DNA of 64,000 nt from an uncultured Chloroflexia bacterium (GCA_963801745.1 CAWDFY010000004.1:640312-704311), one strand, 5' to 3'. Counted from the first letter of the stretch, positions 1,074-64,000 are shown. Numbers and translations are program-made. Notes: generated by a model from the sequence alone, not told the origin.

Positions 1074-2253
1074 ATGTCGATCCGCCGGTTGACGGCACTA
1101 CTCGCGATCTTCGCGATCGTCCTTGCGGCATGTAGCGGGACGACGGCAAGCTCGGCACCGGCCAGCGCGGCTGCGCCGAGCGGGGCGGCCTCGGAGTCGC
1201 CCGCCTCGAGCCCGGCCGACGACGAGTTCATCGTCGGCGTCTCGTGGAACAACTACGACCAGCCGCGCTGGGCGTGCTGCGATGCCCCGGGCATCCGGGA
1301 CGTCGTCACGGCAGCTGGTGGCAAGGTCATCGAGACCGTCGCCGCCAACTCGACCGAGATCCAGCTGTCCAACATCGACGGGCTCATCGCCCAGGGCATG
1401 GACGTGCTGATCCTGCTCGCCAAGGACCCCGAGGCGATGCAGGCCAAGATCGCCGAGGTCAAGGCGCTCGGCATCCCGATCATCGGCTACGACCGCCTCG
1501 TCGACGATCCGGAGGTCTTCTACCTGACCTTCGACAACCAGGGCGTCGGTCGGATCATGGCCGAGGAGTTCACGAAGGTCGTCACCGAGGGCCAGATCGC
1601 GATCGTGAAGGGCCACTCGGCCGATCCCGAACGCGGACTTCCTGCGCGCCGGCATGGAGCCGGTCCTGAAGGCGAATCCCCGGGCTCACGATCCCGGCCG
1701 GGTGCGAGGACTACAACGACAACTGGAACACCGAGAACGCCCGGAACATGATGACCGCCTGCCTGGCGGCCGCGAACAACGACATCGTGGGCGTGATCTC
1801 CGAGAACGACAGCATGGCGACCGGCGTCGTCACCGCGCTCGGCGAGGTCGGTCTCGCCGGGACCATCCCGGTCACCGGCCAGGACGGCGACTTCCCGGCG
1901 CTCAACCGCGTCGCCCTCGGCACCCAGCTGGTCTCGGTCTGGAAGGACTCGGGCCAGCTCGGCAAGGTCGCCGGCGCCCTGGCGATCCAGCTCCATGAAG
2001 GCAAGACGTTCGAGCGAGCTCGTCGCGCCGGACGACATCGCGGACGTATGCCAAGCCACCGGCCGGCAACAACGCGGTCGAGTTCCAGGTGACCGACGCT
2101 GCGGGCGCGACCAACAAGGTCTGGTCCATCACCCTCAACCCCAACCCGGTGCTGCGAGCGAATCTCAACGAGCCGATCGACTCGGGCTGGGTGACCAAGG
2201 ACGTGGTCTGCGCTGGTGTCACCGACACCACCGCCGTCCCGGCCTGCGCCTGA
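1074..2253 (+). pseudogene. xylF: Xylose-type ABC transporter substrate-binding lipoprotein, several +1 frameshifts
   Basis: GGAGGAGGAGG RBS and ATG at 1074; lipoprotein signal (LAACSG). Periplasmic sugar-binding motifs continue through frames 3>1>2>3>1 (KGHSADP / MEPVLKANP / NMMTACLAAANNDIVGVISENDSMATG / ...NNAVEFQVTD). Stop at 2251-2253. Confidence 0.7.
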
Positions 2254-2338
2254 TCGAGGCGTCATGTACGTCGCGCCCTGCGCCCGCGGACCCCGCGGCG
2301 CAGGGCGCTTCGCTCACGTCGAGACGCGAGGTGAGCTC

Positions 2339-3647
2339 GTGACGAACGCCGCCGACACCGTCGTCGTCGAGCCCGACCGCGGCAGACGACGTCGCTGCGC
2401 GGCTGGCGAGCGCTCGAGATCGACCTTCGGCTGTTCGGGATGGTCATCGCCCTCGTGGCGATCATCCTCGGCGTTCGGCGCCCTGACCGGCGGGCGGTTC
2501 CTCACCCCGGTCAACCTCATCAACCTCACGGTCCAGGCCGTATCTCGTGGCGATCATCGCGACCGGGATGACCCTGATCATCGTGTCGCGCAACATCGAC
2601 CTGTCGGTCGGCTCGATCGTCGGCGTCGTCGGGATGACCCTGGCGCTGATGATGACCCAGGTCCTGCCCGAACGCGATCGGGTTCGACCATCCGCTGACC
2701 TGGGTCATCGCGCTCGTCGTCGGCATGGCGCTCGGCGGGCTCATCGGCGCGCTTCCAGGGCGCGATCATCGCCTACATCGGCGTCCCCTCCTTCATCGTC
2801 ACGCTCGGCGGCCTGCTGGCCTGGCGGGGTGTCACGTTCGGCGATCACCCAGGGCGTGACGATCGCCCCGGTCGACCCGATCTTCCGCCTGCTCGGCGGC
2901 GGGCCGCGCGGCTCGCTCGGCGGACCGGCGAGCTGGGTGGTCGGCATCGTCATCTGCATCGCCGTGCGTCGCGCTGCTCGTCTACAACCGGCGGCGGCGC
3001 CGCCAGTTCGGCTTCGCGCTCCGACCGATATGGGCGGAGGTGACCCTCGGGGTGGTCGGCTGCGCCTTCGTCCTGGGCCTCGTCTACATCGCCAACAGCT
3101 ACCTGTGGCCCGCCGGCGCTCGCCCGTCAGTGGTCGCAGCAGACGGGCCTGCCCGTCCCGCCGGGCGGCCTCCAGTCCGGCATCCCGTGGCCGGTCATCG
3201 TTCTGCTGCTGGTGACGCTCGTGATGACCTTCATCGCCACGCAGCCGTCGCTTCGGTCGCTACGTGTTCGCCATCGGCGGCAACCCCGAGGCCGCCGAGC
3301 TCGGCGGCATCAACACGCGCTGGACGATCATGAAGACGTTCATCCTGATCGGGGTCCTGTGCGGGCTCAGCGCGGCCATCGCGGCGGCCCGGATCGACGG
3401 GGCGACGCTCGACCTCGGCGCCGGGTACGAGCTGTACGTGATCGCCGCGTGCGTCATCGGTGGCACCTCGTTCGCCGGCGGCATCGGAACGATCCCCGGC
3501 GCCGTCCTCGGCGCGCTCGTTATGGCCGCGCTCGCCTACGGCCTGAGCTTCATCGGACTGGTCGGTCCGATCCAGGACGTCGTGGCCGGGATCGTGCTCG
3601 TGACCGCGGTCGGGTTCGACACCGTGAACCGACGACGGGCCGGCTAG
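2339..3647 (+). pseudogene. xylH: Sugar ABC transporter permease (XylH-like), multiple frameshifts
   Basis: Permease motifs are spread over several frames: GRFLTPVNLINLTVQA; IIATGMTLIIVSRNIDLSVGS; IAYIGVPSFIVTLGGLLAWRG; FAIGGNPEAAELGGIN...CVIGGTSFAGGIGTIPG. The GTG start at 2339 is tentative. Confidence 0.65.
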
Positions 3648-3663
3648 GCGGGGAGGCAGGGAC

Positions 3664-4469
3664 GTGACCGTCGCCGAGCGCGTGCGCCCTCGTCGAGATG
3701 CGCGACATCAACGTGGCGTTCGGTGGCATCCACGCCGTCAGGGATGTCTCGATCGATCTCCACGAAGGCGAGGTCGTGGGCATCGTCGGTGGCAACGGGG
3801 CCGGGCAAGTCGACGCTGATGCGCGTACTGTCGGGCGCCCACAAGGCCGACTCCGGCGAGATCCTGATCGACGGCGAGACGCAGTCGATCTCCAGCCCAC
3901 GCGATGCCAAGGCCCACAACATCGAGACGATCTACCAGACGCTCGCGCTGGCCGACAACATCGACGCACCGGCCAACATGTTCCTCGGCCGCGAGCTGAT
4001 GACGCGCTGGGGCACGCTCGACGACTCCGCGATGGAGGACCAGACGCGGAAGGTCATGAAGCGGATCAACCCGAACTTCACGAACTTCACGACGCCGGTC
4101 AAGTCGCTGTCGGGCGGCCAGCGGCAGGCCATCGCGATCGCCCGGGCGATCCACTTCAACGCCAGGATCCTGATCATGGACGAGCCGACCGCCGCGCTCG
4201 GGCCGGCCGAGACGGCCCAGGTCCGCGAACAGATCAAGCACCTCAAGAGCGAGGGCGTCGGCATCTTCCTCGATCAGCCACGACATCCACGACGTGTTCG
4301 ACCTGTCCGAGCGGGTCAGCATCATGTACCACGGCCGGATCGTCGACACGGTCGACAAGAACGACGTCACGCCCGACGAGATCGTGAGCATGATCATCCT
4401 CGGCAAGCGACCCGAGGAGGCGAGCACAGAAGGAGCTGGAGCAGCTCGAGCTGGGCTCGGCGGCCCTAA
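3664..4469 (+). pseudogene. xylG: Sugar ABC transporter ATP-binding protein, frameshifted
   Basis: Walker A is split across frames (GGNGAG|[10 protein letters not shown]). Has the LSGGQRQ signature and Walker [13 protein letters not shown]. The C-terminus ([16 protein letters not shown]) is in the next frame. GGGAGG RBS precedes GTG 3664. Confidence 0.7.
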
Positions 4470-5967
4470 GGGTCACACGCGTCGGGCCGGTGGAACGTCG
4501 GGGCCAGCGCCGGGTAGAGCGCCCGATAGGCCTCGTGCGCGTCGGCATACCGTTCCGCGTCCGGGCCCGGTGACGCGGCCGGGGCGACGCGGACCAGCGC
4601 CTCGGTCGCCTCCTCGACCGACCCGAACCAGCCGGCGCCGACCGCCGCCGAGCAGGGCTGCACCGTAGGCCGCGCCCTCGGTCGTGCTGACGGTGGCGAG
4701 CTCGGCGCCCAGGACGTCGGCGAGGATCTGGCGCCACAGCGGGCTGGCCGTCCCGCCGCCTGACGCCCGGACCTGGGCCGGCGCCGGCATGCCGGCCGCG
4801 ATCATCTGGTCGAGGCCGTCGCGCAGCCCGAAGGCGACGCCCTCGAGCACGGCCCGCGTCATGTGCCGCCGATCGTGGCCGACGCTCAGACCGACGAACG
4901 CGCCACGGGCGAGCGGATCGGGGTGCGGGCTCCGCTCGCCGGTGAGGTAGGGCAGGAACAGCAGGCCGTCCGAGCCGGGCGGCACGCCCTCGGCCGACTC
5001 GGTCAGCGTCGCGAACGACTCGCCCGGCGCCAGGGCGTCGCGGAACCAGCGCAGGCTGCCGGCCGCCGACAGCATCACGGTCATCATGTGCCAGCGGCCC
5101 GGGACGGCGTGGCAGAACGCGTGGACCTGGCCGGCCGGATCGCGCAGCGGTTCGGCGGTCGTGGCGAAGACCACGCCGCTCGTCCCGAGCGACAGGGCGA
5201 CGACGCCCGGTGCGACGGCCCCGACGCCGACGGCGTTGGCCGCCTGATCGCCGCCCCCGGCCACGACCGGGGTACCGGCACGGAGCCCCGTCGCCTCGGC
5301 TGCCGCCACCGTGATCATCCCGGTCACCTCGGGCCCCTCGAACGTCGGCGGCAGCCAGTCCGTCTCGATGCCCAGCGCCTCGAGCACCTCGCTCGACCAG
5401 TCGCGGGCCGTCGAGGTCGAACAGCAGGGTCCCGGCACCATCGGCCTTGTCGAGCGCGTGCTCGCCGGTCAGCCGCAGCCGGACGTAGTCCTTGGGCAGC
5501 AGCACGTGGGCGATCCGCGCCCAGACATCGGGCTCGTGGTCGCGGACCCACACCAGCTTCGGCGCGGTGAACCCGGTCAGCGCGGTATTGCCGGTGATCT
5601 CGATGAGACGCTCGGGCCCGATGGCGGCGCGGATCTCGTCGCAGGCATCGGCGGTGCGCTGGTCGTTCCACAGGATCGCCGGGCGGAGCACCTGGTCGGC
5701 CGCGTCGAGCAGCACGGCGCCGTGCATCTGGCCCGTCAGCCCGACCGCGGCGACATCCTCACCGGCGACGCCCGACGAAGCCAGGACGGCCCGGACCGCG
5801 CTGACCGTCCCGTCCCACCACAGCCCCGGGTCCTGCTCCGTCCAGCCCGGCCGGGGCACGTCGTAGCCGTACTCGGCCGTGCCGATCCCGACGACTGCCC
5901 CGGCCTCGTCGACGAGGACGGCCTTGGTGGCCGTCGTCGAGACGTCGATGCCGACGACGTGCGCCAC
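4466..5967 (-). pseudogene. xylB: Xylulokinase (FGGY family), two +1 frameshifts
   Basis: Three consecutive frames: MAHVVGIDVSTTATKAVL...WNDQRT; then SLGTSGVVF...GGGTASPLWRQILADVLG; then [17 protein letters not shown]. The frames join near 5400 and 4650. Confidence 0.85.
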
Positions 5968-5970
5968 GGA

Positions 5971-7336
5971 TCAACGACCGGCGGAGGTCGTCACCCGGGA
6001 CGCGTCGGTCGCCCAGATCGACTGGTTGACGACGTTCTCGAGCGCCTCCTGCTGGCCCGACACTGGCTGGGGATCGATGTCGCCCGCCGCGACCTTGCCC
6101 TCGAGCGACTCGAGCGTCTCACTGCCGTCGAGGATCCTCGACCCGAGCGGTCCGTCCCAGCCCGCGTAGCGCTCGGCCTTGCGGTCGGCGAGGTCGCCGC
6201 GCTCGACCAGGTCGGCCGCCACGAGCAGCGCACGTGCCACGGTGTCGAGCCCGCCGACATGGGCATGGAACAGGTCGCTCCGATCGGTGCTCTGGCGGCG
6301 CAGCTTGGCGTCGAAGTTGAAGCCGCCCGGCGCGATCCCGCCGTGGCGCAGGATCTCGTACAGCGGCAGCGCGAGGTCGTCGACCGAGTTCGGGAACTGG
6401 TCGGTGTCCCAACCGTTCTGCGGGTCGCCACGGTTCGCGTCGATGCTGCCCAGGCTGCCGTTCGAGACCGCGAAGGCGACCTCGTGGTGGAAGCTGTGGC
6501 CGGCCAGCGTCGCGTGGTTGGCCTCGATGTTGACGCGGTACTCGCCGTCGAGGCCATGCCGGACGAGGAAGCCGACCACCGTCGACACGTCGTAGTCGTA
6601 CTGGTGCTTGGTCGGCTCCATCGGCTTGGGCTCGATGAGCAGCTGGCCGTCGAACCCGATCTTGTGCTTGTGCTCCGCGACGAGGTGCAGGAACCGGGCG
6701 AGCTGCTCGCCCTCGCGCTTGCAGGTCGGTGTTGAGGAGCGTGTCGTAGCCCTCGCGGCCGCCCCACAGGACGTAGTTCTGGCCGGACAGCCGCACGGTG
6801 ACCTCGAGCATGTGCTTGACCTGGGCGGCCGCATAGGCGAACACCTCGGGGTCGGGGTTGGTGGCGGCACCGGCCTGGTAGCGCGGATGGGTGAACAGGT
6901 TGGCCGTGCCCCACAGGAGCCGGATCCCGGTCCGTTCCTGGTAGCCCAGGGCGTCGTCGGCCAGGGCGTCCAGGTTGTCGCGGAACTCGGCGAAGGTGTC
7001 GCCCTCCGGCGCGACGTCGCGGTCGTGGAAGCAGAAGTACGGGATGTCGATCTTCTCGAAGAACTCGAAGGCCGCCGCCATCTTCTGGCGGGCCGCGTCC
7101 ATCGGGTCGCCGGCGTCACTCAGCCAGGGGCGGTCCATCGTCCCGATCCCGAACATGTCGATGCCCGGCCAGGCGAACGAGTGCCAGAAGCAGACACCGG
7201 GTCGGAGGTGGTCCTCCATCCGCTGGCCGAGGACCAGCCGGTCCTTGTCGTAGACCTTGAACGCGAAGGGGTTCGTGGAGTCGAGCCCCTCGTATCGGAT
7301 CGGCTCCGTGACCTCCGTGAAGAACGCCTCGACCAC
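5971..7336 (-). pseudogene. xylA: Xylose isomerase, one frameshift near 6725
   Basis: GGAGGAGG RBS and GTG at 7336. Motifs FCFHDRD, WGGREGY and LIEPKP(M)[10 protein letters not shown] are split over two frames. The stop is 3 nt upstream of the xylB start. Confidence 0.9.
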
Positions 7337-7393
7337 GCCGATCCTCCTCCCGACCTCGCTCGACCTGCCTCGTGCCGCAGCGTAGCACCGGCG

Positions 7394-7414
7394 TTTGTAG
7401 GAGAGAAGCACAAA
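7394..7414. promoter_or_regulatory. Candidate ROK/XylR operator palindrome TTTGT-N11-ACAAA upstream of xylA
   Basis: AT-rich perfect 5-bp inverted arms in a GC-rich intergenic region, 58 nt upstream of the xylA start. Resembles the TTTGT/ACAAA cores of known xyl operators (from memory). Confidence 0.35.
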
Positions 7415-7747: not shown

Positions 7748-7828
7748 GGCACCTGCTCGCACGAGGGTGCGCCGATGGCGCAGTCACGTCAAACGAGCCG
7801 GCGGCCACGCCCGGTGTAGCATCGCGCG

Positions 7829-9058
7829 GTGAGCGACAGGGCCGAGCAGGGGTTCTCCACGCGCGCGATCCGCGCCGCCTCGCGCGTGCCGCGCGTCGAC
7901 CAGCGGCCGACCACGGTGCCGATCTACCAGACAGCGACGTTCACCTCGAGCGACGCCGAGGAGCTGGCCGACGTCGTCGCCGATGCGCGCGCCGGGTACT
8001 CGTATACCCGCCTCGCCAACCCGACGAGCCGCGCGTTGGGCGATGCCTATGCCGAGCTTGCCGGAGCGGAGGTCGGTACGTCGCTGTCCTCCGGCATGGG
8101 CGCGGTCCACGCGGCCCTCGGGTCGCAGCTGTCGGCCGGCGACCGGCTGGTCGGGCCGCTGGCCGCCTATGGCTCGACGCGCAAGCTCCTGGGCGACATC
8201 CTCACGCGGTTCGGCGTCCGGGTCGATCTCGTCGACATGACCGACAACACCGCCGTGGCCGCAGCCATCGCGGCCGCCCCGACGACGGTCGTCTACGCCG
8301 AGACCATCGCCAACCCGACGACCGTGGTGACCGATCACGCGACGGTGGCGCGGCTGGCCCACGAGCACGGAGCGACGTACCTCGTCGACAACACCTTCGC
8401 CTCACCGTACGTCTGCCGGCCGATCGAGCTCGGGGCGGACCTGGTCATCGAGTCGGCGACCAAGTTCCTCGGCGGCCACAGCGATGTCATCGCCGGCGTG
8501 GTGGCCGGCCGCGCCGAGCTCGTCCGCCAGGTCGAGGCCTTCCAGAACGACACGGGCGGCACGGTCGGGCCCTTCGACGCGTTCCTCGTCCTGCGCGGGC
8601 TGCTGACCCTCGGCGTGCGCATGGACCGACACGCCAGCAACGCCGCGGCACTCGGCGGCTGGCTCGAGCGTCAGGAGGGCGTGGTCCGCGTCCTCTATCC
8701 GGGTCTGCCCAGCCATCCGCAGCACGCCGTCGCCGTCCGCCAGTTCCGCGACGGCGTGGCCGGCGGCATGCTCGCCTTCGAGGTCGAGGGTGGCCGAGCG
8801 GCCGGTCAGGCGATCATCGATTCGATGTCGCTCCCCGAGCTGACCGCCTCGCTCGGCAGCGTCCACACGTTCGTCGTCCATCCGCCGTCGACCTCCCAGC
8901 GCCAGCTGTCCGAGGACGAGCTGATCGCGTCCGGCATCACGCCGGGGCTGCTTCGGGTGTCGGTCGGCCTCGAGGATGTCGAGGACCTGCAAGCCGACCT
9001 CGCCGCCGCGCTCGCGGTGGCGCGTCGCGCGGCGAGCGGCGCCCCGGTCGGCGTCTAG
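7829..9058 (+). CDS. PLP-dependent Cys/Met-metabolism enzyme (cystathionine gamma-synthase / methionine gamma-lyase / O-acylhomoserine sulfhydrylase family)
   Basis: Intact 409-aa ORF. PLP-lysine motif SATKFLGGHSD, plus YTRLANPT and RVSVGLED family motifs. Confidence 0.85.
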   Translation: MSDRAEQGFSTRAIRAASRVPRVDQRPTTVPIYQTATFTSSDAEELADVVADARAGYSYTRLANPTSRALGDAYAELAGAEVGTSLSSGMGAVHAALGSQLSAGDRLVGPLAAYGSTRKLLGDILTRFGVRVDLVDMTDNTAVAAAIAAAPTTVVYAETIANPTTVVTDHATVARLAHEHGATYLVDNTFASPYVCRPIELGADLVIESATKFLGGHSDVIAGVVAGRAELVRQVEAFQNDTGGTVGPFDAFLVLRGLLTLGVRMDRHASNAAALGGWLERQEGVVRVLYPGLPSHPQHAVAVRQFRDGVAGGMLAFEVEGGRAAGQAIIDSMSLPELTASLGSVHTFVVHPPSTSQRQLSEDELIASGITPGLLRVSVGLEDVEDLQADLAAALAVARRAASGAPVGV

Positions 9059-9067
9059 GCCCTCCCC

Positions 9068-10516
9068 GTGGCGACACCGGCCGCCGTCCGGGCGGCGAGC
9101 GCCGCGGGCGCCCCGACCAACCCGCTCGCGCAGCTCGGCCAGGGCATCTGGCGACTGCTGACGTCGGTCGACTTCGCGGTCGCCCAGATCATCTTCCTGT
9201 CGATCCTCGCGGTCATCGGGATGACCCTCCAGCAGCTGCCCGACTTCGCATCCCGCTCGGCTGGCGACTACGCGGCCGCGATGGAGGCCATCCACGTCCG
9301 CTATGACCCTGTGCTCGGGCCGGGCGTCGTCAACGTGCTCGAGCGGCTCGGCACGTTCGCGATCTTCAAGTCGGCGATCTTCGGGATCGCGCTCGTGGTC
9401 CTGGCCGTGTCGATCGTGGTGTGCACGCTGGATCGCACCCCGCGGCTGTGGCGGGACGTGTCCGCGGTGCGGGTCGCCCAACCCGAGCCGTTCTTCGACC
9501 CGCGGCTACCGGACCGCGCGGCGATGGACGGCGTCGCGGCCGCCGACGTGTCGCGCGTCGTCCGCGGCCACGGGCTGCGCGTCCGCGAGGAGGTCGCCCC
9601 GGACGGGACGACGCACGTCTACGGCGACCGCCACCAGTACACGAAGCTCGCGACCCTGTTCACCCACCTCGGGCTGATCCTGTTTCTCGTCGCGGCGGCC
9701 GTGACATCGCGGTTCGGCGACGAGCAGGGCCTGATCGTGCCCGAGGGCGAATCGCTGACCGTCCAGAACATCGGCACGCCCGACCTGCTGCTCGTCAAGA
9801 ACCTCGACTTCGAGGCGCCCGGCTTCGAGACCGGCATGCCGAGCGACTTCACGACGGACCTCGCCGTGTTCCAGAACGGCACCGAGGTCGCCCGCAAGAC
9901 GATCCGCGTCAACGACCCGCTCGCGGTCGGCGGCTACACGTTCCACCAGAACGGGTTCGGTCCGGCACCCCACCTCGTGATCCGGGACACGGACGGCGAA
10001 CCGCTGTGGGACGCCAAGGTGCCGATGATCGGGGCCGCCGGCGGGGCGCCGTACGAGACGATGGCGGTGCCCGGCAGGGACCTCGGGCTGCAGCTGCTGC
10101 TCGGCCGGAACGACGCCGGCGAGGGGGTCCTGGTCGTCCTGCCCTACCGGATCATCGGCACCAACCCCGACGGCACGCCCCAGGTCGAGAACTTCGACGC
10201 CGTCCGGCTGCGGCCCGGCGACGAGCAGGTGTCCGACGCGCTGGGCATCTCGATCGCGCTGACCGACTTCGGCGAGTACACGCTGCTCATCGCCAAGCGC
10301 GATCCGGGGCAGGGCATCGTGTGGGCGGCGTTCCTGTCGCTGATCGCGGGCATCACGATCACGTTCTACCGGCCGCGGCGCCGGGTCTGGGCCCGCGTCG
10401 CGCCGGACGGCCGCCTCGGCATCGTGTTCCGCGCCGACCGCTATGTCGACGTCGAACGCGAGTTCGGCGCGATGCTCGACGACCTCGTCGCGGCCCGTCC
10501 ACCCGCGCCGGCGTGA
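9068..10516 (+). CDS. resB: Cytochrome c biogenesis protein ResB/Ccs1
   Basis: Intact 482-aa ORF. ResB-type N-terminus (WRLLTSVDFAVAQIIFLSILAVIGMTLQQLP), a large extracytoplasmic domain and a C-terminal TM helix. Confidence 0.75.
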   Translation: MATPAAVRAASAAGAPTNPLAQLGQGIWRLLTSVDFAVAQIIFLSILAVIGMTLQQLPDFASRSAGDYAAAMEAIHVRYDPVLGPGVVNVLERLGTFAIFKSAIFGIALVVLAVSIVVCTLDRTPRLWRDVSAVRVAQPEPFFDPRLPDRAAMDGVAAADVSRVVRGHGLRVREEVAPDGTTHVYGDRHQYTKLATLFTHLGLILFLVAAAVTSRFGDEQGLIVPEGESLTVQNIGTPDLLLVKNLDFEAPGFETGMPSDFTTDLAVFQNGTEVARKTIRVNDPLAVGGYTFHQNGFGPAPHLVIRDTDGEPLWDAKVPMIGAAGGAPYETMAVPGRDLGLQLLLGRNDAGEGVLVVLPYRIIGTNPDGTPQVENFDAVRLRPGDEQVSDALGISIALTDFGEYTLLIAKRDPGQGIVWAAFLSLIAGITITFYRPRRRVWARVAPDGRLGIVFRADRYVDVEREFGAMLDDLVAARPPAPA

Positions 10517-12045: not shown

Positions 12046-12121
12046 TATCGTGTCCTCCCGAGGTGTCGTGCCGCCGACTTTGGTGCGGCATGCACAAACG
12101 GACGGAGGACCACGTATCGCG

Positions 12122-13579: not shown

Positions 13580-13602
13580 CGAGCACCCATCCGCGAGACC
13601 CG

Positions 13603-13624
13603 CCCGGCTGCGGCAGCAGCCGGG
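13603..13624 (+). terminator. Stem-loop downstream of glnA
   Basis: CCCGGCTGC-GGCA-GCAGCCGGG, a 9-bp GC stem located 24 nt after the glnA stop. No clear T-tract. Confidence 0.4.
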
Positions 13625-13661
13625 CGTATCCTTCTGCCCGATACCGACGAGGAGGAACCCG

Positions 13662-20015: not shown

Positions 20016-20029
20016 GGCATACTCCCGCC

Positions 20030-48066: not shown

Positions 48067-48075
48067 GACTCGACC

Positions 48076-52504: not shown

Positions 52505-52654
52505 GGACGAGGGACCCCCTGGATGATTGCGGACGGCCCGGGGTCCGATAGGACCATGCGGAGGCGTCCCGATGAACGACTGGCCTAGCAGGATACGCGA
52601 CCCGACGTAAAGTGGCGTTCAACGCCCCACGTTTCGGTGACGGTGGGCAACGTG

Positions 52655-53539: not shown

Positions 53540-53557
53540 GCGCCCTACCGTAGCGGC

Positions 53558-53830
53558 ATGTGCCGCAGCATCAAGACCCTCCGTCGTCCGGGTGAATCGG
53601 CGACGACCGGCGAACTGGAGGCCGCCGCCCGCCAGTACGTCCGCAAGCTCAGCGGCTATCGCGAGCCGAGCGCCCGGAACCGCGAGGCGTTCGAGTCGGC
53701 GATCGCCGACATCGCCCACGCGTCGCAGCACCTTGTCGAGGCGCTGGGCGTCGACGTCGAGGACGGTCCGAACAAGTGGATCGGGCGCGACGGCATGGTC
53801 CACCTGGAGCCGATCCGGATCCGCGGGTGA
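53558..53830 (+). CDS. DUF2277-family small protein
   Basis: The MCRSIKTLRRP...ARQYVRKLSGY start is typical of the family (recalled from memory). Confidence 0.65.
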   Translation: MCRSIKTLRRPGESATTGELEAAARQYVRKLSGYREPSARNREAFESAIADIAHASQHLVEALGVDVEDGPNKWIGRDGMVHLEPIRIRG

Positions 53831-55062: not shown

Positions 55063-55072
55063 GGGCGGGGCG

Positions 55073-55945: not shown

Positions 55946-55976
55946 GGAGCTACCGCCCCCGGGCCACCGGGCGGTG

Positions 55977-56115
55977 GTGACCGGCAGTCAGCACCGAGGC
56001 TCCGAAGGAACTGATCTCGGCTCAAACGAGGCCCTTCGTGACTGTCAGTCACCGGTCGGGCGACGTACAAGGCTCGATGCCGCGTCTCGACCCGTCGGTG
56101 CTGACTCCGGGTCAC
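55977..56115. repeat. Palindromic MITE/REP-like element, copy A (139 bp)
   Basis: Ends GTGACCGGCAGTCAGCACCGAGG... and ...TCGGTGCTGACTCCGGGTCAC are inverted repeats. Internal dyad GTGACTGTCAGTCAC. Confidence 0.75.
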
Positions 56116-56149
56116 CTAACCGGCAGATAAGCCCCAGTCGAGCGCCGTC

Positions 56150-56920
56150 GTGTTGGATACGACGATGGCAATCCGACGGCCATCAGTCGAGCGACTGGTC
56201 CAGCAGCGACTGAGGTCACTCGTCCGCAAGGTCGGTGACGACGTTAGGCGCGTCAGGATCGACACGTCTGCCAGCCAAGCTGCCGTAGCCCGCGAGGCTG
56301 GCATCGATCGATCGCATGTGACCCGGATCGAAGCCGGCATGACCCAGGCCAGCCTGGAGACGCTCGTTGCGATCGCGACGGCCTTGGGTGCCGATGTCAG
56401 CGTCCGCTTGTATCCGGGACGCGGCCTCGGCATCACCGACCGCCACCAGGCACCCATGATCGAGTGCCTGCTAGGCCAACTCGCGCCCGTATGGCGTCCG
56501 CACCTCGAGGTCGCGACGTTCCGGCCGGCGCGGGGGTTCATCGACACGGTCCTCGAACGGCGCGACCATCCACTCCTCGTGATCGGTGAGTTCGAGTCGA
56601 CGCTCCCGAGGCTCGAGCAGCAGATCCGATGGGCGTCCGAGAAGGCGGCCTCGATCGGCTCCTCGGATCTCGTCGGACCCGGTCCCGCGCCGCGGACTTC
56701 GAAGCTGTTGGTCCTGCGTTCGACGGAGTCGACGCGCGGTCTCGCCCGGACGTTCGAGAAGACGCTTCAGGCCGCCTACCCGGCGTCGACTCGCGAAGCC
56801 GTCGAGTCGCTCCGGACCGGCTCCCCGTGGCCCGGCGACGCCATCATCTGGTTCCGGATCCAAGGAGACCGCGTCGAGTTGCTCGACGGGCCGCCGCGGG
56901 GAGTCAAGCTCGGTCGATAG
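56150..56920 (+). CDS. XRE-family HTH protein with uncharacterised (possibly nuclease-fold) C-terminal domain
   Basis: HTH SQAAVAREAGIDRSHVTRIEAG. The C-terminal ~170 aa carry an H...IDTV...LLVIGEFES pattern. Bracketed by repeat copies A and B. An alternative start is ATG 56165. Confidence 0.65.
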   Translation: MLDTTMAIRRPSVERLVQQRLRSLVRKVGDDVRRVRIDTSASQAAVAREAGIDRSHVTRIEAGMTQASLETLVAIATALGADVSVRLYPGRGLGITDRHQAPMIECLLGQLAPVWRPHLEVATFRPARGFIDTVLERRDHPLLVIGEFESTLPRLEQQIRWASEKAASIGSSDLVGPGPAPRTSKLLVLRSTESTRGLARTFEKTLQAAYPASTREAVESLRTGSPWPGDAIIWFRIQGDRVELLDGPPRGVKLGR

Positions 56921-56922
56921 GC

Positions 56923-57071
56923 GTGACCGGGAGTCAACACCGAGGGTCCGAAGGTGCCGATGGGCGCGTCCAGCACGAAGGTGGGTGACTCACACGCACA
57001 CATCGACGCCGAACCGGCTCGATTCGGCGGTCATGGCGATCTTCGAGAGGCTGGTGCTGACTCTCAGTCAC
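56923..57071. repeat. Palindromic MITE/REP-like element, copy B (149 bp)
   Basis: GTGACCGGGAGTCAACACCGAGGGTCCGAAGG...GGTGCTGACTCTCAGTCAC. Starts 2 nt after the XRE stop. Its right end supplies the stop codon of the PPOX gene. Confidence 0.75.
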
Positions 57072-57504
57072 GGGCAACGGCGCTCCAGCGAGTCGCGCGC
57101 TCGATCGTCATCGCGATCGTCGGCCGGCGCTCGAGGTCGTGATCGCGGTACTGCGGGTACTTCGCCCGGAGCGACGCGATGACCGCGACCGGTACGTCCG
57201 CTGGCTCGACGAGCCTCGCGGATCCGGCCAGTCGCAGCCATGCCAGCTCGGACCAGTCCTCCGACCAGCGGTCGACCAGCAGCGTCACCGCCGGCCGCTC
57301 GTCGATGTCGCGCACGCTCGCGAGCGATCGCACGTCGGCAACGGCCTTCGGCTTCTCGTCGAGCGGCGTCCAGACGACGCCGTCGAGGAGCACGAAGCAG
57401 ACCGGCACCAGCCGCGGGCGACCATCGCCATCGATCGTCGCGAGCGTCGCCGTCCGCGCCGCCGCGAGGAGCTTACGGTCGGCCGGCGTCAGGACCGGGG
57501 GCAC
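57064..57504 (-). CDS. PPOX-class F420-dependent oxidoreductase (TIGR03668-like)
   Basis: ARTATLATIDGDGRPRLVPVCF...VTLLVDRWSEDWSELAWLRLAG...LRAKYPQY. Confidence 0.75.
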   Translation of the reverse strand: MPPVLTPADRKLLAAARTATLATIDGDGRPRLVPVCFVLLDGVVWTPLDEKPKAVADVRSLASVRDIDERPAVTLLVDRWSEDWSELAWLRLAGSARLVEPADVPVAVIASLRAKYPQYRDHDLERRPTIAMTIERATRWSAVARD

Positions 57505-58600
57505 TCGCCGGGCGCTCGTTGACGAACTCGAAGCCGAAGCGGCCCTTGATGCAGAGATGGCCCTCGGTCACCGTCGAGTCGAGCGGCGAGGTCACCTTGA
57601 GGATCCGCTCGTCCTGGACGTGCAGGTCGACCACACATCCGACGCCGCAGTACGGGCAGATCGTCGACGTCACGGTCTGGACGTCTGGATCCCACGTGCC
57701 ATCCGCTCGCATGTCGTACTCGGTCTTCGCCATGAGCGCCCCGGTCGGGCACACGCCGATGCAGTTGCCGCAATACACGCATGCCGACTCGGGCAGCGGG
57801 ACGGCGGCTTCGGTCGAGATCCGCGCGTCAAACCCGCGCCCCGCGACCGCGATCGCGAACGTGTTCTGGGCGTCCTCGCCGCACGCCTCGACGCACTTGT
57901 AGCAGAGGATGCACTTCGAGTAGTCGCGCACGTAGAGGTCGTTGTCGACCTTGGTCGGCTGGGCGACGGTGGCGGCGAACGCGGCCTCGACGCCGGTCGG
58001 CTCGTGATGGTGCCCGGCCTCCCGGGCGTCGCGCACGCCGGCCGTGGCGGGCGGCGCCGGCAGGCCGAACCGCGTCGGGTCGGCGCCATACCGCTCCATG
58101 TAGTCGTGGATCGTCCCGTCCGGCGTCGCGGGCCCGGTCAGCGACACGTCCACCGACGATCCGAGGAACTCGAGCACGACCTTGCGGGACGTGCGGACCC
58201 GCTCGGTGTCGGTCTGCACGTCCATGCCCGGCTCGACCCGCCGGGAGCAGGCGGGTGCGAGCACGCGCGACCCGGCGACCTCGACGACACAGACCCGACA
58301 GACGTTGACCGGGGTCAGGTTCTCCGCGTAGCACAGCGTCGGCGTATCGATGCCGAGCGCGCGACAGGCGTCGAGGATCGTCGAGCCGGTCGGGACCGTG
58401 ACCGCCTGCCCGTCGATCGTGAGCTCGACCGGTGTCGGTGCCTCGACGGGCGGCGGCGTCGGTGGCTTCGATGGCCGCGCCGGTGGCGACAGGACGATCT
58501 CGGTCAGCGGCTGCGCGGCAGGCGCCTGGCCCGCGTGCGGCGAATGCGGATCGGGGGCGGGGTCGCGCGTCATCGACAGGCCGGACGTGTCCTCGGTCAC
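57473..58600 (-). CDS. NAD-type formate dehydrogenase alpha subunit, N-terminal Fe-S module only (2Fe-2S, NuoG-type 4Fe-4S, 2x4Fe-4S ferredoxin, Molybdop_Fe4S4)
   Basis: LTIDGQAVTVPTGSTILDAC...CRVCVVEV; CILCYKCVEACG...CVYCGNCIGVCPTGAL; ICPYCGVGCVVDL...GHLCIKGRFGFEFV. Then the ORF ends. Its GTG overlaps the upstream stop. Confidence 0.8.
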   Translation of the reverse strand: MTEDTSGLSMTRDPAPDPHSPHAGQAPAAQPLTEIVLSPPARPSKPPTPPPVEAPTPVELTIDGQAVTVPTGSTILDACRALGIDTPTLCYAENLTPVNVCRVCVVEVAGSRVLAPACSRRVEPGMDVQTDTERVRTSRKVVLEFLGSSVDVSLTGPATPDGTIHDYMERYGADPTRFGLPAPPATAGVRDAREAGHHHEPTGVEAAFAATVAQPTKVDNDLYVRDYSKCILCYKCVEACGEDAQNTFAIAVAGRGFDARISTEAAVPLPESACVYCGNCIGVCPTGALMAKTEYDMRADGTWDPDVQTVTSTICPYCGVGCVVDLHVQDERILKVTSPLDSTVTEGHLCIKGRFGFEFVNERPASAPGPDAGRP

Positions 58601-60445
58601 AGGGCCACCAGCCCGGGCTGTCGGAGCGCCGACTCGATGGCCGACGATGCGGTCTGGCCGAGCCCGCAGATCGATGCATCGCGCATGGCCTGGCCGATCT
58701 CGCGCAGCAGGACCAGCTCCTCGTCACGCGTGCGGACGCGCGCCCCCGCGGCGAGCCGCGTCAGCAGCTCCTCCTGGCGCACGCTCCCGACTCGACACGG
58801 GACGCACTGCCCGCACGACTCATCGCGGAAGAAGCGGGCGATGCGCCGCAGCGTGTCGACGAGGTCGACGGTCTCGTCGAACACCATGATCACGCCCGAC
58901 CCGAGCGTCGCCCCGGCAGCGCGGGTGGCCTCGAACGTCAGCGGCATCTCGAGCGAATCGGGCCCGACGAAGACGCCGGCTGCGCCACCGAGCAGGATCG
59001 CCCGGATCGGGCGCCCGCCGCTGACCCCGCCGGCGAGCTCGATCAGGTCGCCGAGCGTCGCGCCGAACTCGACCTCGTAGACGCCGGGTCGCGCGACGTG
59101 ACCGGACAGGCAGAACAGCCGGGGCCCGGTCGAGCCCTCGGTGCCGATCCCGGCGTATGCCTCGCCGCCCAGCTCCAGCACGAGCGGCACGTTCACCAGC
59201 GTCTCGACGTTGTTGACCACGGTCGGCATGCCGAACAGCCCGACCTCGACCGGGAACGGCGGCTTGTTGCGCGGCTCGCCGCGCTTGCCCTCGATCGACT
59301 CGAACAGCGCGGTCTCCTCGCCACAGATGTACGCGCCGGCGCCGCGGCGCACCTCGATGTCGAACGCGACGCCGGACCCGAGGATGTCGGCCCCGAGCAG
59401 GCCGGCAGCGCGCGCGGCCGCGATCGCGTCGCGGACGTTCGCCTCCGCCTCCGGGTACTCGCCGCGGATGTACAGGTAGCCACGCGTGGCACCGGTCGCG
59501 AACGCGCCGATCGTCATCGCCTCGACCACCGCGAACGGGTCGCCCTCGAGGAGGACGCGGTCCTTGAACGTGCCGGGCTCCGACTCGTCGGCGTTGCACA
59601 CGAGGTAGTGGGGCTGTGCCGGCTGGGCGGCTACCGCGGCCCACTTGCGGCCGGTCGGGAACGCCGCCCCGCCACGGCCCATCAGCTTCGACGCGGTCAC
59701 CTCGGCGATGACCGCCTCCGGGCCGATCTCGAGCGCCTTCGCGAGGGCGGTGTAGCCGCCGTGCGCGCGGTAGTCGTCGAGCGACGTCGGGTCGACGACC
59801 CCGACCCGACGCAGCAGCCGGAGCGACGCGTCTGCCCGCCTGCGGGATCGAGGGCGGTCGCCGCCGCGTCGACCCGCCGTCGAGCCGGGCGACGATCCCG
59901 GCCGCGTCGACCGGCGCCGCGCTCATCACGCCGGGCGGATCGCCGGCGGTCGTGACCAGCGCGGCCGGCGCCAGGTCGCACAGCCCGAGGCAGGGCGATC
60001 GCTTCCAGCCGACGCGCCCGTCCCGTGCCGCCTCGCCCTCCGGCCCGACCGACCGCCCGAGGTCGTCGCAGATCGCCTCCGCCCCGGCGACGCGACATGC
60101 GATGTCATCGCAGACGTGGGCCACGACCGGCGGCCGCGGGGTGGTCGCGTAGAGCGCGTAGAACGTCGCGACGCCGTACGCCTCGGCCGGCGGCACCGCC
60201 AGCCGTCGCGAGATGTAGTTCAGGGCGGGCTGGCTGATCCAGCCGATGCGGTCCTGGACCGCGTGCAGCGCCGGCAGCAGCAGCGTTCGCTGCGAGCGGA
60301 GCGCATGCCCGCCACGGGCGGCGTGACCGTCGATGCCCGGCCGTCGGGTCCCGCCGACCCACCCGGACTCCGGCTGGCCGAGCACGCTGTCGACCGCCGC
60401 ACGCTCGGCGGGGGACGCGAGCGGCCCGATGACGTGCAGGTCCAT
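58597..60445 (-). pseudogene. NuoE-NuoF-like fusion (FdsG/FdsB; NAD/FMN/Fe-S diaphorase module), one +1 frameshift near 59830-59880
   Basis: NuoE part VCDDIACRVAG...CLGLCDLAP. NuoF part GRGGAAFPTGRKW, NADESEPGTFKDR, ESCGQCVPCR and CGLGQ. Confidence 0.8.
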
Positions 60446-60493
60446 CGGGTCGAGTGTAGCGGCGGGACCGCAGCGGTCGCGGCCCGGCGGTCC

Positions 60494-62409
60494 TCAGGCC
60501 GGGACGGCCTCGCCCAGCTTCTCGATGCGGATCGCGGTCGCCTTGAACTCGGCCGTGCCCGACTTCGGGTCGGTCGCGTCGATCGTCAGCAGGTTCGTCG
60601 CGACGTCGTCCTGGAAGTGCAGCGTCATGAAGGTCAGGCCGGGTCGGAGCGAGGGGTCGATCCGGACCGGCACCTCGACCTGGCCGCGACGCGAGATCGC
60701 GCAGACCACCTCGCCGTCGGCGAGTCCGTACGTCTCGGCGTCCTCCGGCGAGATGTCGAGCGACTCGCCCCGGCGGAGCGGCGACGTGTAGCCCGCGGTC
60801 TGGACGCCGGTGTTGTACGAGTCGAGTCGACGGCCGGTCGTCAGGCGGATCGGATACTCGTCGGTCAGCTTGTCGACGGGCGGGTCGTGATCGACCGGAA
60901 CGAACGGCACGCGATTGCCGGGGACGGGGTCCTCCCACAGTCGACTGTGGAGGAACAGCTCGCCCGGGTGGTCCTCGTCGTAGCACGGCCACTGGATGCC
61001 GCCGAGCTCCTCGAGGCGCTGGTAGGTCATCCCGGCGTGGACCGGCGACAGCGACCGGACCTCGTCCCACACCCGCTCGGCGTCGGGCTCGCCCCAGTCG
61101 TGGCCCATCCGGCGGGCGATGTCGAAGATGATCGCCAGGTCGTCGCGGGCACCCTCGGGTGGCGTCGACCGCCTTGCGGACGCGCTGGACGCGCCGTTCC
61201 GAGTTGGTGACCGTGCCCTCGCCCTCGGCCCAGGCGGCGGTCGCCGGCAGGACGACGTCCGCGAGCTCGGCCGTCCTGGTCAGGAACAGGTCCTGCACGA
61301 CGAGCATGTCGAGCCCCTCGAGCAGACCGATGGCGCGGCGCTGGTCGGCCTCGGACTGGACCGGGTTCTCGCCGATGCAGTACACGGCGGTGAGGTCGCC
61401 CCGCTCCATCGCATCGAACATGCCCGACAGGTGCCAGCCACGCTCTGGCGGGATCGTGACGCCCCAGGCCGCGTCGAACTTCGCGCGGAGCTCGTCGTTC
61501 TCGACGTGCTGGAAGCCGGGCAGTCGATCGGGCAGGGCGCCCATGTCGCCGCCGCCCTGCACGTTGTTCTGGCCACGGAGCGGGTTGACGCCGCTCCCGT
61601 AGCGACCGACGTGGCCGGTCAGCAGCACGAGGTCGATCAGGGACAGGACGTTGTCGACCGCGTTGTGGTGCTCGGTGATGCCGAGCGTCCAGCAGATCAT
61701 CGCCCGCGGCGCGGTCGCCAGCGCGTGCGCCAGCTCGCGGATGGCGTCGGCCGGGACACCGGTCTCGCGCTCGGCGTACTCGAGCGTGTACGACTCGACC
61801 TTGGCCTTGTAGGCATCGAAGTCGGAGGTCGCCCGGCCGATGAACTCGCGGTGCTCCAGGCCCGACGGCGATGATCTCGCGCCCGATGGCGTTGGCCAGC
61901 GCGATGTCGCTGCCCACGTCGAGGCCCAGCCACGTGTCGGCCCATTCCGCGCTCGATGTCCGGCGCGGGTCGACCGCGTACAGCCGCGCGCCCTTGTGCA
62001 CGGCCTTGAGGAGGTGGTGGAAGAAGATCGGATGCGTCTCGCGGGCATTGCTGCCCCAGAGGACGATCAGATCGGTGTCCTCGACCTCACGGTATGAACT
62101 TGTGCCGCCACCGGCACCGAACACGGTCGCCAGACCGGCGACGCTCGGGGCGTGTCAGGTGCGGTTGCAGCTATCGATGTTGTTGCTGCCCAGGACCGCC
62201 CGGCTGAACTTCTGTGCCGCGAAGTTGACCTCGTTGGTCGCCTTGCTGCAGCTGAAGGTGCCGAATGTCGTCGGGCCGTGCGCGGCCCTGGCCGCGGTGA
62301 ACCCGGCGACGACGCGGTCGAGCGCTTCGTCCCACGTCGCGGGTCGAAGCTCGCTGCCCTTCGTGTCGCGGACGAGGGGCTGGGTCAGCCGTACGTAGGG
62401 CCTCGCCAC
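60494..62409 (-). pseudogene. Formate dehydrogenase catalytic (Mo/W-bisPGD) module, selenocysteine-containing; in-frame TGA at 62155-62157 plus two +1 frameshifts
   Basis: GGAGG RBS and GTG at 62409. RLTQPLVRD...NNIDSCNRT-TGA-HAPSVAGL places the TGA at the Sec/Cys active-site position. Continues as LWGSNARETHP, NPLRGQNNVQGG and a C-terminal DMSO-reductase-type barrel (LTTGRRLDSYNTG). Confidence 0.8.
62122..62154 (-). promoter_or_regulatory. Bacterial SECIS element immediately 3' of the UGA
   Basis: mRNA UGA-CACG-CCCCGAGC-GUCGCC-GGUCU-GGCGAC-CGUG: a lower helix CACG/CGUG, an upper 6-bp helix, and a GGUCU apical loop like the fdhF SECIS loop (recalled from memory). Confidence 0.7.
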
Positions 62410-62523: not shown

Positions 62524-62662
62524 GTGACTCCCAGTCAGCATGGAGGCGCCGAGACCTCCTGCCGACGGCGCGTGAGCGGCGGACGGTGACCGGTGGTCAC
62601 GACTGGGGTCTGAGGAACCATCCGACGCGTGTTTCGAGGCCCTGGTGCTGACTGGGAGTCAC
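62524..62662. repeat. Palindromic MITE/REP-like element, copy C (139 bp)
   Basis: GTGACTCCCAGTCAGCA...TGCTGACTGGGAGTCAC (perfect 17-bp terminal inverted repeats). Internal GGTGACCGGTGGTCAC. The right end supplies the selD stop codon. Confidence 0.75.
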
Positions 62663-63713
62663 GCGAGGGCCACGCCCGTGCCGTCGGTCACGGACCGACC
62701 CGCCAGTGGTCGACGCCGGCGTCGTCGAGGGCCGCCGTGACCGCCTCGAGACGCTCGTCCGGGATGGCCGCGAGCAGGCCGCCGCTCGTCTGCGGGTCGT
62801 GGGCGAGCGTGACGATCTCCGGCGGCGACGCCCGTCGCCGACCTCCAGGTCGGCCGCCACGAACCGGCGGTTGTGGGCCGCGCCACCGGTCTCGACGCCG
62901 GCCGCGGGCGAGGTCGAGCGCGCCCGGCAGGGCCGGCAGCGCCGCCGCGTCGAACACCAGCCGGACGCCCGACGCGCGCGCCATCTCCAGGCCGTGGCCG
63001 AGCAGCCCGAAGCCCGTGACGTCGGTCGCCCCGCGGATGTCATTCGCGACGAGGACCTCGGCGGCAGCCCGGTTGAGGCGCCCGCATCGCGTCGATCGCC
63101 GATCGCGAGGTCGGCGGCGCCGGTCCGGCCCTGTCGCGCGCCGCTGACCAGCACACCGGTCCCGAGCCGCTTGGTCAGCAGCAGCGTGTCGCCGGCGCGG
63201 GCGCCGCCCTTGCGCAGCAGCCGGTCGGGGTGGGCCGCGCCGATGACCGCCAGCCCGTACTTCGGCTCCGGGTCGCGGATCGTGTGCCCGCCGGCCAGCG
63301 TGCCGCCGGCCTCGCGGACCTTCGCGGACGCCCCGCCGAACACCTCGGCCAGCACGTCCCGCGGCAGCTCCTCGGGGAATGCCGCGATCGACAGCGCGAA
63401 CAGGACGCGGCCACCCATCGCGAACACGTCGCTCAGCGCGTTCGCGGCCGCGATCTCGCCGAACGTCCGGGCGTCGTCGACCAGCGGCGGGAAGAAGTCG
63501 AGCGTGCCGATGATCGCGAGGTCGTCGCTGATGCGGTAGGCGGCCGCGTCGTCGGGCGGGTCGAGACCGGCGATCAGGTCGGCCGGGGCGGCCTCGGCGC
63601 CGAGGCCCGCGAGCGCATCGGACAGCAGGTCGGCGCCGAGCTTCGCCGCGCAGCCGCCGCAGTCGGTCAGGCTCGGTGAGGCGCAGACCCGGGACGTCGG
63701 CGAGGCTCGTCAT
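62659..63713 (-). pseudogene. selD: Selenide, water dikinase SelD (Cys-type), many +1 frameshifts
   Basis: MTSLADVPGLRLTE / TDCGGCAAKLG...ALSDVFAMGG...GGHTIRDPEPKYG / AIDAMR / LNRAAAEVL..ATDVTGFGLLGH / AHDPQTSGGLL, recovered from alternating frames. Confidence 0.8.
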
Positions 63714-63743
63714 CGCCCGATGATAGGCGCGCTCCGGCATTAC

Positions 63744-63840
63744 CATCGCTCCTGGGAGCGGTCGGGCCCCGGTGGGTCCCCCGGTCTTCAAAACCGGTGA
63801 CGCCGCGCTCGGCGTGGCGTGGTGGGTTCGACTCCCACGC
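63744..63840 (+). tRNA. selC: tRNA-Sec (anticodon TCA), 97 nt, CCA encoded
   Basis: Hand fold: 6-bp D-stem GGGCCC/GGGTCC with a 4-nt loop, anticodon stem CCGGT/ACCGG with loop CTTCAAA, long variable arm, T-arm GTGGG-TTCGACT-CCCAC, and an extended acceptor stem. Confidence 0.9.
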
Positions 63841-63850
63841 GTTCCCGCCA

Positions 63851-64000
63851 CGGAGGACCGATGTCGTCGAAGTCGGCCGATCGCGCCCTCGCCCGCCCAG
63901 CGTCGAGGCCGTGCTCAAGGTGCTGCGCCCGTCTGTCGACGGCGTCGACCGTGACGCGCTGACCGCGGTCGTCCGCGAGGTCATCGACGACGAGCGGTCG
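63851..64000 (+). pseudogene. selA: L-seryl-tRNA(Sec) selenium transferase SelA, 3'-partial, one frameshift near 63890
   Basis: GGAGGA RBS and ATG at 63851. A PSVEAVLKVL...ALTAVVREVIDDER N-terminal pattern follows a +1 shift. The position after selC supports the call. Confidence 0.5.

Follow-up and report, generated by a model that had tools for sequence, protein, structure and literature searches.

Frame breaks along a Chloroflexia contig are very probably consensus errors of a long-read-type metagenome assembly

Background

In Mycobacterium leprae, for example, reductive evolution has led to many true pseudogenes, and in such real decay insertions, deletions, stop codons and substitutions are mixed, essential genes are spared and constraint is relaxed. 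Programmed +1 frameshifting, as in prfB, takes place at one conserved site per gene and involves a defined motif. Frameshift errors are also known from long-read metagenome assemblies of soil (PMC13087279), and indel consensus errors that shorten or split predicted proteins can be measured with IDEEL-type length tests and corrected by tools such as proovframe (PMC13087279; bioRxiv 10.1101/2021.08.23.457338; PMC9262707). The residual errors commonly described are those of homopolymer length (PMC9262707).

Here we examine a window, i.e. a whole stretch of 64,000 nucleotides, from an uncultured Chloroflexia bacterium (GCA_963801745.1, CAWDFY010000004.1:640312-704311). The genome that holds it (G000) was compared with genomes of its relatives (among them G005, G008, G010, G011, G012 and G032). 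Like that of M. leprae, it has many frameshifted genes, but there is no mixed spectrum of mutations, no sparing of essential genes and no relaxed constraint. The +1 direction is shared with prfB, whereas the sites are many per gene and not conserved, and no common motif is apparent in the contexts inspected. With indel errors of long-read assemblies the genome shares single-base indels that disrupt otherwise conserved genes, high contiguity yet depressed marker completeness (a problem that is worse in low-abundance soil genomes), and relatives whose short-read assemblies are unaffected. It departs from the long-read errors commonly described in that insertions outnumber deletions by about 10:1, homopolymers are avoided and the patches measure at most 10 kb. 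Judging from sequence comparison, the frame breaks in the window and genome-wide are very probably consensus errors in the deposited assembly, the genes being intact in the organism. Because almost all of them would be spurious bases from long-read metagenome assembly, they are to be seen as a data-quality problem rather than as gene decay. The case is argued by comparison.

Frame breaks in the window

Breaks were called by frameshift-aware protein-to-DNA alignment against orthologues of the relatives, together with DNA multiple alignments that included up to 14 relatives. In DNA of 71% GC, shadow ORFs made raw tblastn and ORF lists misleading, and reference ORFs were instead filtered by codon-position GC. 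Against intact orthologues we observed about 47 frame breaks, comprising 43 single extra bases, two two-base insertions (at 50795 and 62828) and two of deletion type (at 51593, and a 4-nt gap near 41480). The initial annotation had held that all shifts are net +1, and this is true of the single extra bases (about 91%), insertions overall making up 96%, but not of the two two-base insertions and the two deletion-type breaks. In the DNA alignments every extra base is missing from all 3-14 relatives, whose orthologues read straight through every shift site, and the neighbouring genes have no frameshifting indel. On checking, no internal stops were found within the correct frames, just as that annotation had stated, and in comparison with G032 the broken genes are as well conserved (amino-acid identity about 0.81) as the clean ones (about 0.83).

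A gene for a xylF-like sugar-binding protein (1058..2247, plus strand) has about four +1-equivalent shifts, near 1626, 1690-1705, 2003 and 2046, in frameshift-aware alignment with the orthologues from G008, G010 and G032, positions that are approximate because orthologue identity is just 44-51%. It is followed on the plus strand by an ABC sugar permease gene (BPD_transp_2, identified by Pfam on the intact G032 orthologue; 2371..3644), where the alignments place eight extra bases (2473, 2545, ~2670, 2753, 2845, ~2970, 3118 and 3245) and possibly a ninth within 2385-2415, and by an ABC ATPase gene (3668..4447), with extra bases at 3803, 4271 and 4427 according to alignment with relatives. On the minus strand lie the genes for xylulokinase (FGGY by Pfam; 4487..6187), whose alignments reveal three extra bases (5971, 5411 and 4645-4649) rather than the two reported for xylB, and for xylose isomerase (5974..7414), with a single extra base at 6722 in alignments with six reference sequences.

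Further along, the glutamine synthetase gene (13582..15025, plus strand; Pfam) has five single extra bases (13982, 13998, 14056, 14685 and 14803) and not three as initially counted, each of them missing from all 8-11 relatives. The PA-M28 peptidase gene (40436..41950, minus strand; Pfam), for which G032 is the sole reference, has extra bases at 41362 and 40791, and also the deletion-type break near 41480, so that its shifts are not all +1 as had been thought. In the gene for a GMC oxidoreductase (44389..46084, plus strand; Pfam) one extra base, an A at 45244, was found in alignments with five references. A minus-strand gene encoding a large secreted protein (50695..52601) could be resolved only via its G032 orthologue, an 867-aa ORF. 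Alignment to this ORF, together with DNA alignment, shows nine extra bases (52248, 52194, 52127, ~52083, 51873, 51845, 51449, 51231 and 51039), one missing base (51593) and the 2-nt insertion at 50795, and GC3 phase changes agree with the mapped breaks, while a Pfam search of this gene, using fragments of 49.7-52.5 kb in any frame, gave no family. The last three genes, again on the minus strand and with Pfam assignments, are a NuoE-NuoF fusion (58600..60471; single extra base at 59833 in the alignments), the molybdopterin part of formate dehydrogenase alpha (60497..62154; extra bases at 61865 and 61164 relative to five references with 88-93% amino-acid identity) and selenophosphate synthetase (SelD, 62662..63725; extra bases at 63670, 63097, 63079 and 62904 and the 2-nt insertion at 62828, from alignments).

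Dense and clean blocks

The breaks fall into blocks at 1.06-7.4, 13.6-15.0, 40.4-42.0, 50.7-52.6 and 59.8-63.7 kb, with a lone break at 45244. Between them about 27 kb of assessable coding sequence is free of any frameshifting indel (7.8-13.6, 15.0-23.2, 28.2-29.0, 31.0-32.4, 38.2-39.5, 43.0-44.3, 46.2-49.7 and 52.7-59.8 kb), for which the Poisson chance at the mean rate of the window, about 1 per kb, would be about e^-28. The strong clustering proposed from the sequence thus stands. Clean blocks include one of four genes at 7791..13576 (plus strand), where DNA alignments with 11-14 relatives and alignment to G032 revealed no frameshifting indel, one at 15044..23218, clean in its assessable genes, and others at 46197..49674 and 52661..59800, all three delimited by alignment to relatives. 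The stretch of 28.1-40.4 kb, which had also been listed as clean, is so in those parts that are assessable.

A different case is the 23.4-27.6 kb stretch, initially taken for a shift-dense block. It belongs to an island of gene fragments at 23363..28152 that starts at the 3' end of a tRNA-Pro(CGG), contains fragments of an alpha/beta hydrolase, CitMHS, a beta-lactamase and an amidase along with an AT-rich tract, and is missing from the relatives, namely from G032 and from JGI contig L049. This island is outside the +1 pattern and may consist of real gene remnants. Compared with a copy in G010 that is 90% identical, its amidase fragment (25.4-25.9 kb) has 3-4 deletions; together with the breaks at 51593 and ~41480, these are the deletions that run against an insertion-only pattern.

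Block edges are sharp, and the shortest dense block, of 1.4 kb, has clean genes on either side. One may therefore consider a hybrid or partly short-read-polished assembly, where clean blocks are polished or derived from short reads and dense blocks are unpolished long-read sequence. Genome-wide, however, event density goes with GC content only weakly at most (rho 0.14, p=0.013) and with conservation not at all (rho 0.02), which gives no hint that short-read coverage dropped out regionally. The many sister genomes with the same pattern (see below) also point to a common long-read-only pipeline, and partial polishing is in our view unlikely.

Extent in the genome and the genus

The extra bases are present in the G000 assembly alone, are pervasive and strike essential genes. 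Across this genome, which consists of 5 contigs and has a marker completeness of 77%, 214 of the 378 conserved orthologues (57%) are frameshifted, with 1.22 events per kb and up to 9-14 shifts per gene. Strictly isolated events comprise 286 of +1, 30 of -1, 19 of +2 and 7 of -2, and insertions outnumber deletions by about 8-10:1. Among the broken genes are those for DNA polymerase III alpha (DnaE; 3-4 breaks), seryl-tRNA synthetase (SerS; 6), MiaB, RecJ (11) and TrpE, all five named from sequence motifs. Clustering is evident genome-wide as well (dispersion chi-square 778 on 316 df, p=6e-41). Event densities of different genes are correlated within 2.5 kb (rho 0.35), less so out to 10 kb (0.12-0.17), and not beyond (about 0); this limit of about 10 kb is of the order of long-read length.

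The same kind of break was found in other members of the genus. When clean G000 proteins were aligned to other few-contig genomes, only +1 breaks were observed (one in G011, four in G012 and two in G005), and none when they were aligned to short-read contigs. Among the 22 genomes with at most 30 contigs, 11 have a DnaE that is split within a contig, vs none of the 19 with at least 60 (Fisher p=2.5e-4), splits being counted from the hit table. The split sites vary from genome to genome, and genomes with a split DnaE have a completeness of about 72%, vs 86% for those without. Breaks thus follow assembly type: other contiguous, low-completeness assemblies carry them, at different sites, and short-read assemblies do not. 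The relatives retrieved by a metagenome scan (about 82-86% DNA identity) served for alignment and are not of the same population, and an exact-protein look-up of a clean neighbouring protein returned no record.

An alternative explanation would be real mutations, with insertion-biased pseudogene formation in a decaying genome. The bases do stand in the deposited sequence, and the island at 23.4-28.1 kb resembles genuine gene remnants. Nevertheless, breakage of 57% of conserved genes (those for the replicative polymerase and a tRNA synthetase among them), the lack of stops, unrelaxed constraint in the correct frames and a phenomenon that goes with the type of assembly in 41 genomes of the genus leave this scenario barely credible. 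Programmed +1 ribosomal frameshifting or another form of recoding would agree with the uniform direction, but not with such numbers of shifts per gene, nor with inspected contexts that share no apparent motif and unconserved sites through which all orthologues read straight; its probability is practically negligible. It is likewise extremely improbable that the extra bases are truly in the population DNA, through insertion-biased, homopolymer-avoiding mutation in kilobase patches, with the genes still expressed by, for example, large-scale +1 decoding. In contrast, an artefact of an insertion-prone assembly with regionally poor coverage or polishing, the leading explanation of the initial annotation, is supported by the breakage of essential genes with normal frames and conservation, from the same type of break at other sites in few-contig, low-completeness relatives and never in short-read assemblies, and from patches of no more than 10 kb. 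As a whole, the pattern first described was partly confirmed.

Sequence context and possible origin of the extra bases

Several shifts had been reported to sit in G or C runs, a claim for which we found no support: only 9 of 38 extra bases in the window are identical to a neighbouring base, vs 46% expected for random insertions, and the longest run at any of them is GGG. The inserted bases (16 G, 11 C, 6 T and 5 A) match the composition of the genome. We compared the context of 264 real events with that of 195 simulated random insertions passed through the identical pipeline. Pure homopolymer extensions make up 9% of real vs 30% of simulated events (p=1.5e-8), and homopolymer-length sequencing error was rejected on these grounds. 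Two different, mutually synonymous bases adjacent at a third codon position were observed in 25% of real vs 12% of simulated events (p=5.5e-4), and these side-by-side synonymous pairs are mostly G/C (44/67 real vs 9/24 simulated). They hint at consensus building across mixed strains.

One way in which the artefact might arise is that most extra bases mark single-base differences between co-assembled strains, both alleles having been written next to each other in the consensus; the strains would then differ in dense blocks and be identical in clean ones. Besides accounting for depleted homopolymer extensions and for enriched synonymous pairs, largely G/C, this would yield insertions only, and patchiness as well, and in glnA four of the five sites are third positions at which both bases are found among relatives. 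On the other hand, the inserted base occurs at the adjacent column in relatives for 55% of window events vs 48% of simulated ones, which is no real difference. Third-position enrichment becomes modest once homopolymer cases are dropped (28% vs 17.5%, p=0.025) and could be mimicked by a preference for G-next-to-C contexts, and the share of events placed between codon positions 1 and 2 (21%) equals that of random insertions. We consider this sub-mechanism quite possible, if somewhat short of an even chance.

Alternatively, on a platform prone to insertions, raw read insertions may have survived where few reads or few polymerase passes made the effective depth very low, in which case block boundaries would mark a change in the set of covering reads. 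Error rates of raw PacBio reads are about 8% for insertions, 3.2% for deletions and 1.7% for substitutions, vs about 4% for each type in Nanopore R9.4 reads (PMC7671305). Recurrence in two reads at the PacBio rates would lead to an insertion:deletion ratio of about 6:1 with few substitutions, close to the 8-10:1 observed, and the patch scale and the genome-like composition of inserted bases fit too. The events are nonetheless non-random, homopolymer-type insertions being three times rarer than random insertion predicts, and we regard low depth as a tentative possibility, roughly one chance among three. A profile so rich in insertions and so poor in homopolymer events is unlike the textbook residual errors of Nanopore or HiFi.

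Under the preferred reading of consensus error, the source would be a long-read-type metagenome-assembled genome, in 5 contigs, of a low-abundance soil Chloroflexota, into which consensus building or polishing would have written single extra bases, adding bases far more often than dropping them and seldom in homopolymers. Sequencing platform and exact insertion-creating step are likewise inferred. Patches of up to 10 kb may reflect a consensus quality that tracks the few long reads over each stretch, varying locally with depth, single-read accuracy or a co-assembled strain mixture; partial polishing is a further candidate cause of the patchiness.

Conclusions

This result is a warning about data and no discovery. 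G000 is the species representative in the searched collection, which is described as holding one genome per GTDB species, and yet a majority of its conserved genes would be read as fragments or pseudogenes, and a completeness of 77% is too low an estimate. The defect is shared by roughly half the contiguous assemblies of the genus. The signature, consisting of insertions only, that avoid homopolymers, lie in patches of up to 10 kb and often place synonymous bases side by side, could guide tool builders to the causal step. As for the organism itself, to infer from this contig a loss of xylose use, glutamine synthetase, formate dehydrogenase or selenium metabolism would be wrong.

Reference selection and calling of frameshifts

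The window spans G000:C4:640312-704311, and its source genome (G000; 3.38 Mb, 71% GC, 5 contigs) has a marker completeness of only 77% despite its high contiguity. Within the genus, genomes in few contigs tend toward lower completeness than many-contig, short-read-like ones, which was a first hint of indel errors of the long-read kind. Since shadow ORFs mislead simple ORF and tblastn reading in GC-rich DNA, we took syntenic DNA from relatives, kept only those reference ORFs whose GC content varied over the codon positions as in coding sequence, aligned proteins to DNA with a custom aligner allowing +1, +2, -1 and -2 steps, and checked its break calls by DNA multiple alignments. The best reference was G032:C2, a contig from a genome in 4 contigs with 92% completeness; almost the entire window has a collinear counterpart there, in inverted orientation, at 77-88% DNA identity. 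JGI short-read soil contigs matched 4.6-23 kb of the window at ~82-86% identity, and a search of public records returned no sequences near-identical to the window region. Genes in the window were named by Pfam on the intact G032 orthologues.

Broken genes in the window

The initial annotation had described every shift here as a net +1. Altogether 43 single insertions, two double insertions and two deletion-type events were called, so that the strong insertion bias stands, but about 91% of the events rather than 100% are +1. Several of the earlier per-gene counts were too low, because two insertions lying close together (e.g. those at 13982 and 13998) can pass for a single net shift. At the start of the window, the gene for a xylF-like sugar-binding protein (1058-2247) has about four shifts, every one equivalent to +1, and the ABC permease gene (2371-3644) has eight extra bases, with break positions in both accurate to a few bases owing to low-identity references. 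Three extra bases each are found in the ABC ATPase (3668-4447) and xylulokinase (4487-6187) genes, and one in that of xylose isomerase (5974-7414). All five extra bases of the glutamine synthetase gene, glnA (13582-15025), are absent from every one of the 8-11 relatives in the DNA multiple alignment. Two further genes were called on a single reference: that of a PA-M28 peptidase (40436-41950), with two extra bases and one deletion-type break, and that of a secreted protein of ~800 aa without a Pfam family (50695-52601), with nine extra bases, one missing base and one 2-nt insertion. Called events in the latter correspond one for one to changes in GC3 phase. This large, signal-peptide-bearing protein is encoded on the minus strand, its G032 counterpart being an 867-aa ORF (G032:C2, ~395.9-398.3 kb), and the DNA of the gene is present in 13 of the 40 other genus genomes searched.

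Single extra bases occur in the genes of a GMC oxidoreductase (44389-46084) and a NuoE-NuoF fusion (58600-60471), two in the molybdopterin part of fdhA (60497-62154), and four, together with one 2-nt insertion, in selD (62662-63725), which adjoins fdhA. An apparent split of fdhA at ~62155 is probably an in-frame selenocysteine TGA and not a break: in G032, the molybdopterin ORF corresponding to this part of the window (62154-62409, minus strand) begins directly after a stop codon, at HAPSV, which fits a selenocysteine codon at that position.

Across the window the correct frames are essentially free of stop codons, broken and clean genes do not differ in their similarity to G032, and the assessable genes that separate the dense blocks (~27 kb), compared with up to 14 references, contain no frameshifting indel. 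The stretch at 28.1-40.4 kb, previously listed as clean, does hold adjacent ORFs with complete, distinct domains, but it is only partly assessable. At 30.2-31.0 kb (30173-31036), a short ORF of 116 aa with TetR_N only precedes a fragment of an alpha/beta hydrolase, 101 aa long and matching profile positions 62-110 of 245; the pair may represent more hidden breaks or a real remnant.

What had been taken for a dense block at 23.4-27.6 kb is instead a 4.8 kb island of gene fragments (alpha/beta hydrolase, CitMHS transporter, beta-lactamase and Amidase_2), which starts directly after the 3' end of a tRNA-Pro(CGG) gene (23286-23362), reaches 28152 and includes the AT-rich tract at 27.6-28.1 kb. The Amidase_2 fragment carries deletions relative to a 90%-identical copy in G010, another genome of the genus, and the island (23.4-28.1 kb) is missing from G032 and from the JGI contig L049. 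The island resembles the decayed remains of a tRNA-targeted mobile element. A separate segment of 940 bp (15299-16237) is missing from three close JGI contigs (L050, L055 and L092), in which 15298 is joined directly to 16238.

Patchiness and sequence context of the breaks

A comparison of the entire G000 genome with 800 kb of sequence from G010, which is 95% complete, yielded 378 orthologues covering 468 kb, of which 214 (57%) were frameshifted in G000, a rate of 1.22 events per kb. Isolated events well within alignments comprised 286 of +1, 30 of -1, 19 of +2 and 7 of -2 (p=1.5e-53 for +1 against -1). The clustering noted initially is real, events per gene being overdispersed genome-wide (chi-square 778 on 316 df, p=6e-41), with 139 genes free of events where 91.5 were expected. 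Densities in neighbouring genes are correlated up to 2.5 kb (rho 0.35), weakly so to 10 kb (0.12-0.17) and not farther (~0), and the median spacing within patches is 152 nt; density shows no relation to conservation (rho 0.02) and barely any to GC content (rho 0.14). Since patches of at most 10 kb are of the scale of a single long read, error density may depend on how deeply a stretch was covered, on how accurate single reads were, or on a mixture of strains. The cleanest stretch sampled, G000:C3:127-146 kb, has two events in 12 consecutive conserved genes (0.17 per kb), where contigs C1, C2 and C5 have 1.1-1.9 per kb.

The context of the inserted bases, compared with random insertions simulated and run through identical pipelines, is non-random. 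In the window they track genome composition (16 G, 11 C, 6 T and 5 A), yet only 9 of 38 equal a neighbour (46% simulated, p=0.005), and pure homopolymer extensions make up 9% genome-wide against 30% simulated (p=1.5e-8). The initial observation is therefore confirmed in part: the clustering holds, as does an insertion bias that is strong though not absolute, and the placing of shifts in short G or C runs was wrong. One possible source is an insertion-prone platform whose raw insertions survived into the assembly where effective depth was very low; this agrees with the error ratios reported for raw PacBio reads (8% insertions, 3.2% deletions and 1.7% substitutions; PMC7671305) but leaves the avoidance of homopolymers unexplained. 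Another, at somewhat less than even odds, is that where strains differ the consensus step at times puts their two alleles side by side. That would predict the observed enrichment of different, mutually synonymous bases paired at third codon positions (25% against 12% simulated, p=5.5e-4; 28% against 17.5% with homopolymer cases excluded, p=0.025), among which G/C pairs account for 44 of 67 (9 of 24 simulated), and four of the five glnA sites are third positions where both bases occur among relatives. Against it, a more direct comparison found the inserted base at the adjacent column in relatives about as often as in simulations (55% and 48%).

Biology or artefact

Frameshifted G000 genes include, as assigned by sequence motifs, those of DNA polymerase III alpha, seryl-tRNA synthetase, MiaB, RecJ (11 breaks) and TrpE; we know of no free-living cell able to bear such a load of broken genes. 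When clean G000 proteins were aligned to the related genomes G011, G012 and G005, one, four and two breaks were found, every one +1; the short-read genome G002 and three JGI contigs had none. Of 41 genus genomes, 22 have at most 30 contigs and 19 at least 60; splits of DnaE inside a contig occur in 11 of the former and in none of the latter (p=2.5e-4), which have splits at contig ends only. No two genomes share a split site. Mean completeness is ~72% in DnaE-split genomes, ~14 points lower than in contiguous ones with intact DnaE (~86%). Over the genus as a whole (G001-G048), roughly one in two assemblies with at most 30 contigs carries a frameshift-split dnaE.

Long-read assemblies from soil are known to contain frameshift errors (PMC13087279). 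The artefact reading favoured by the initial annotation is supported both by the frameshifting of 57% of orthologues and by the same type of break at other places in assemblies of the same type. The frameshifts in the window are almost certainly not a real biological feature.
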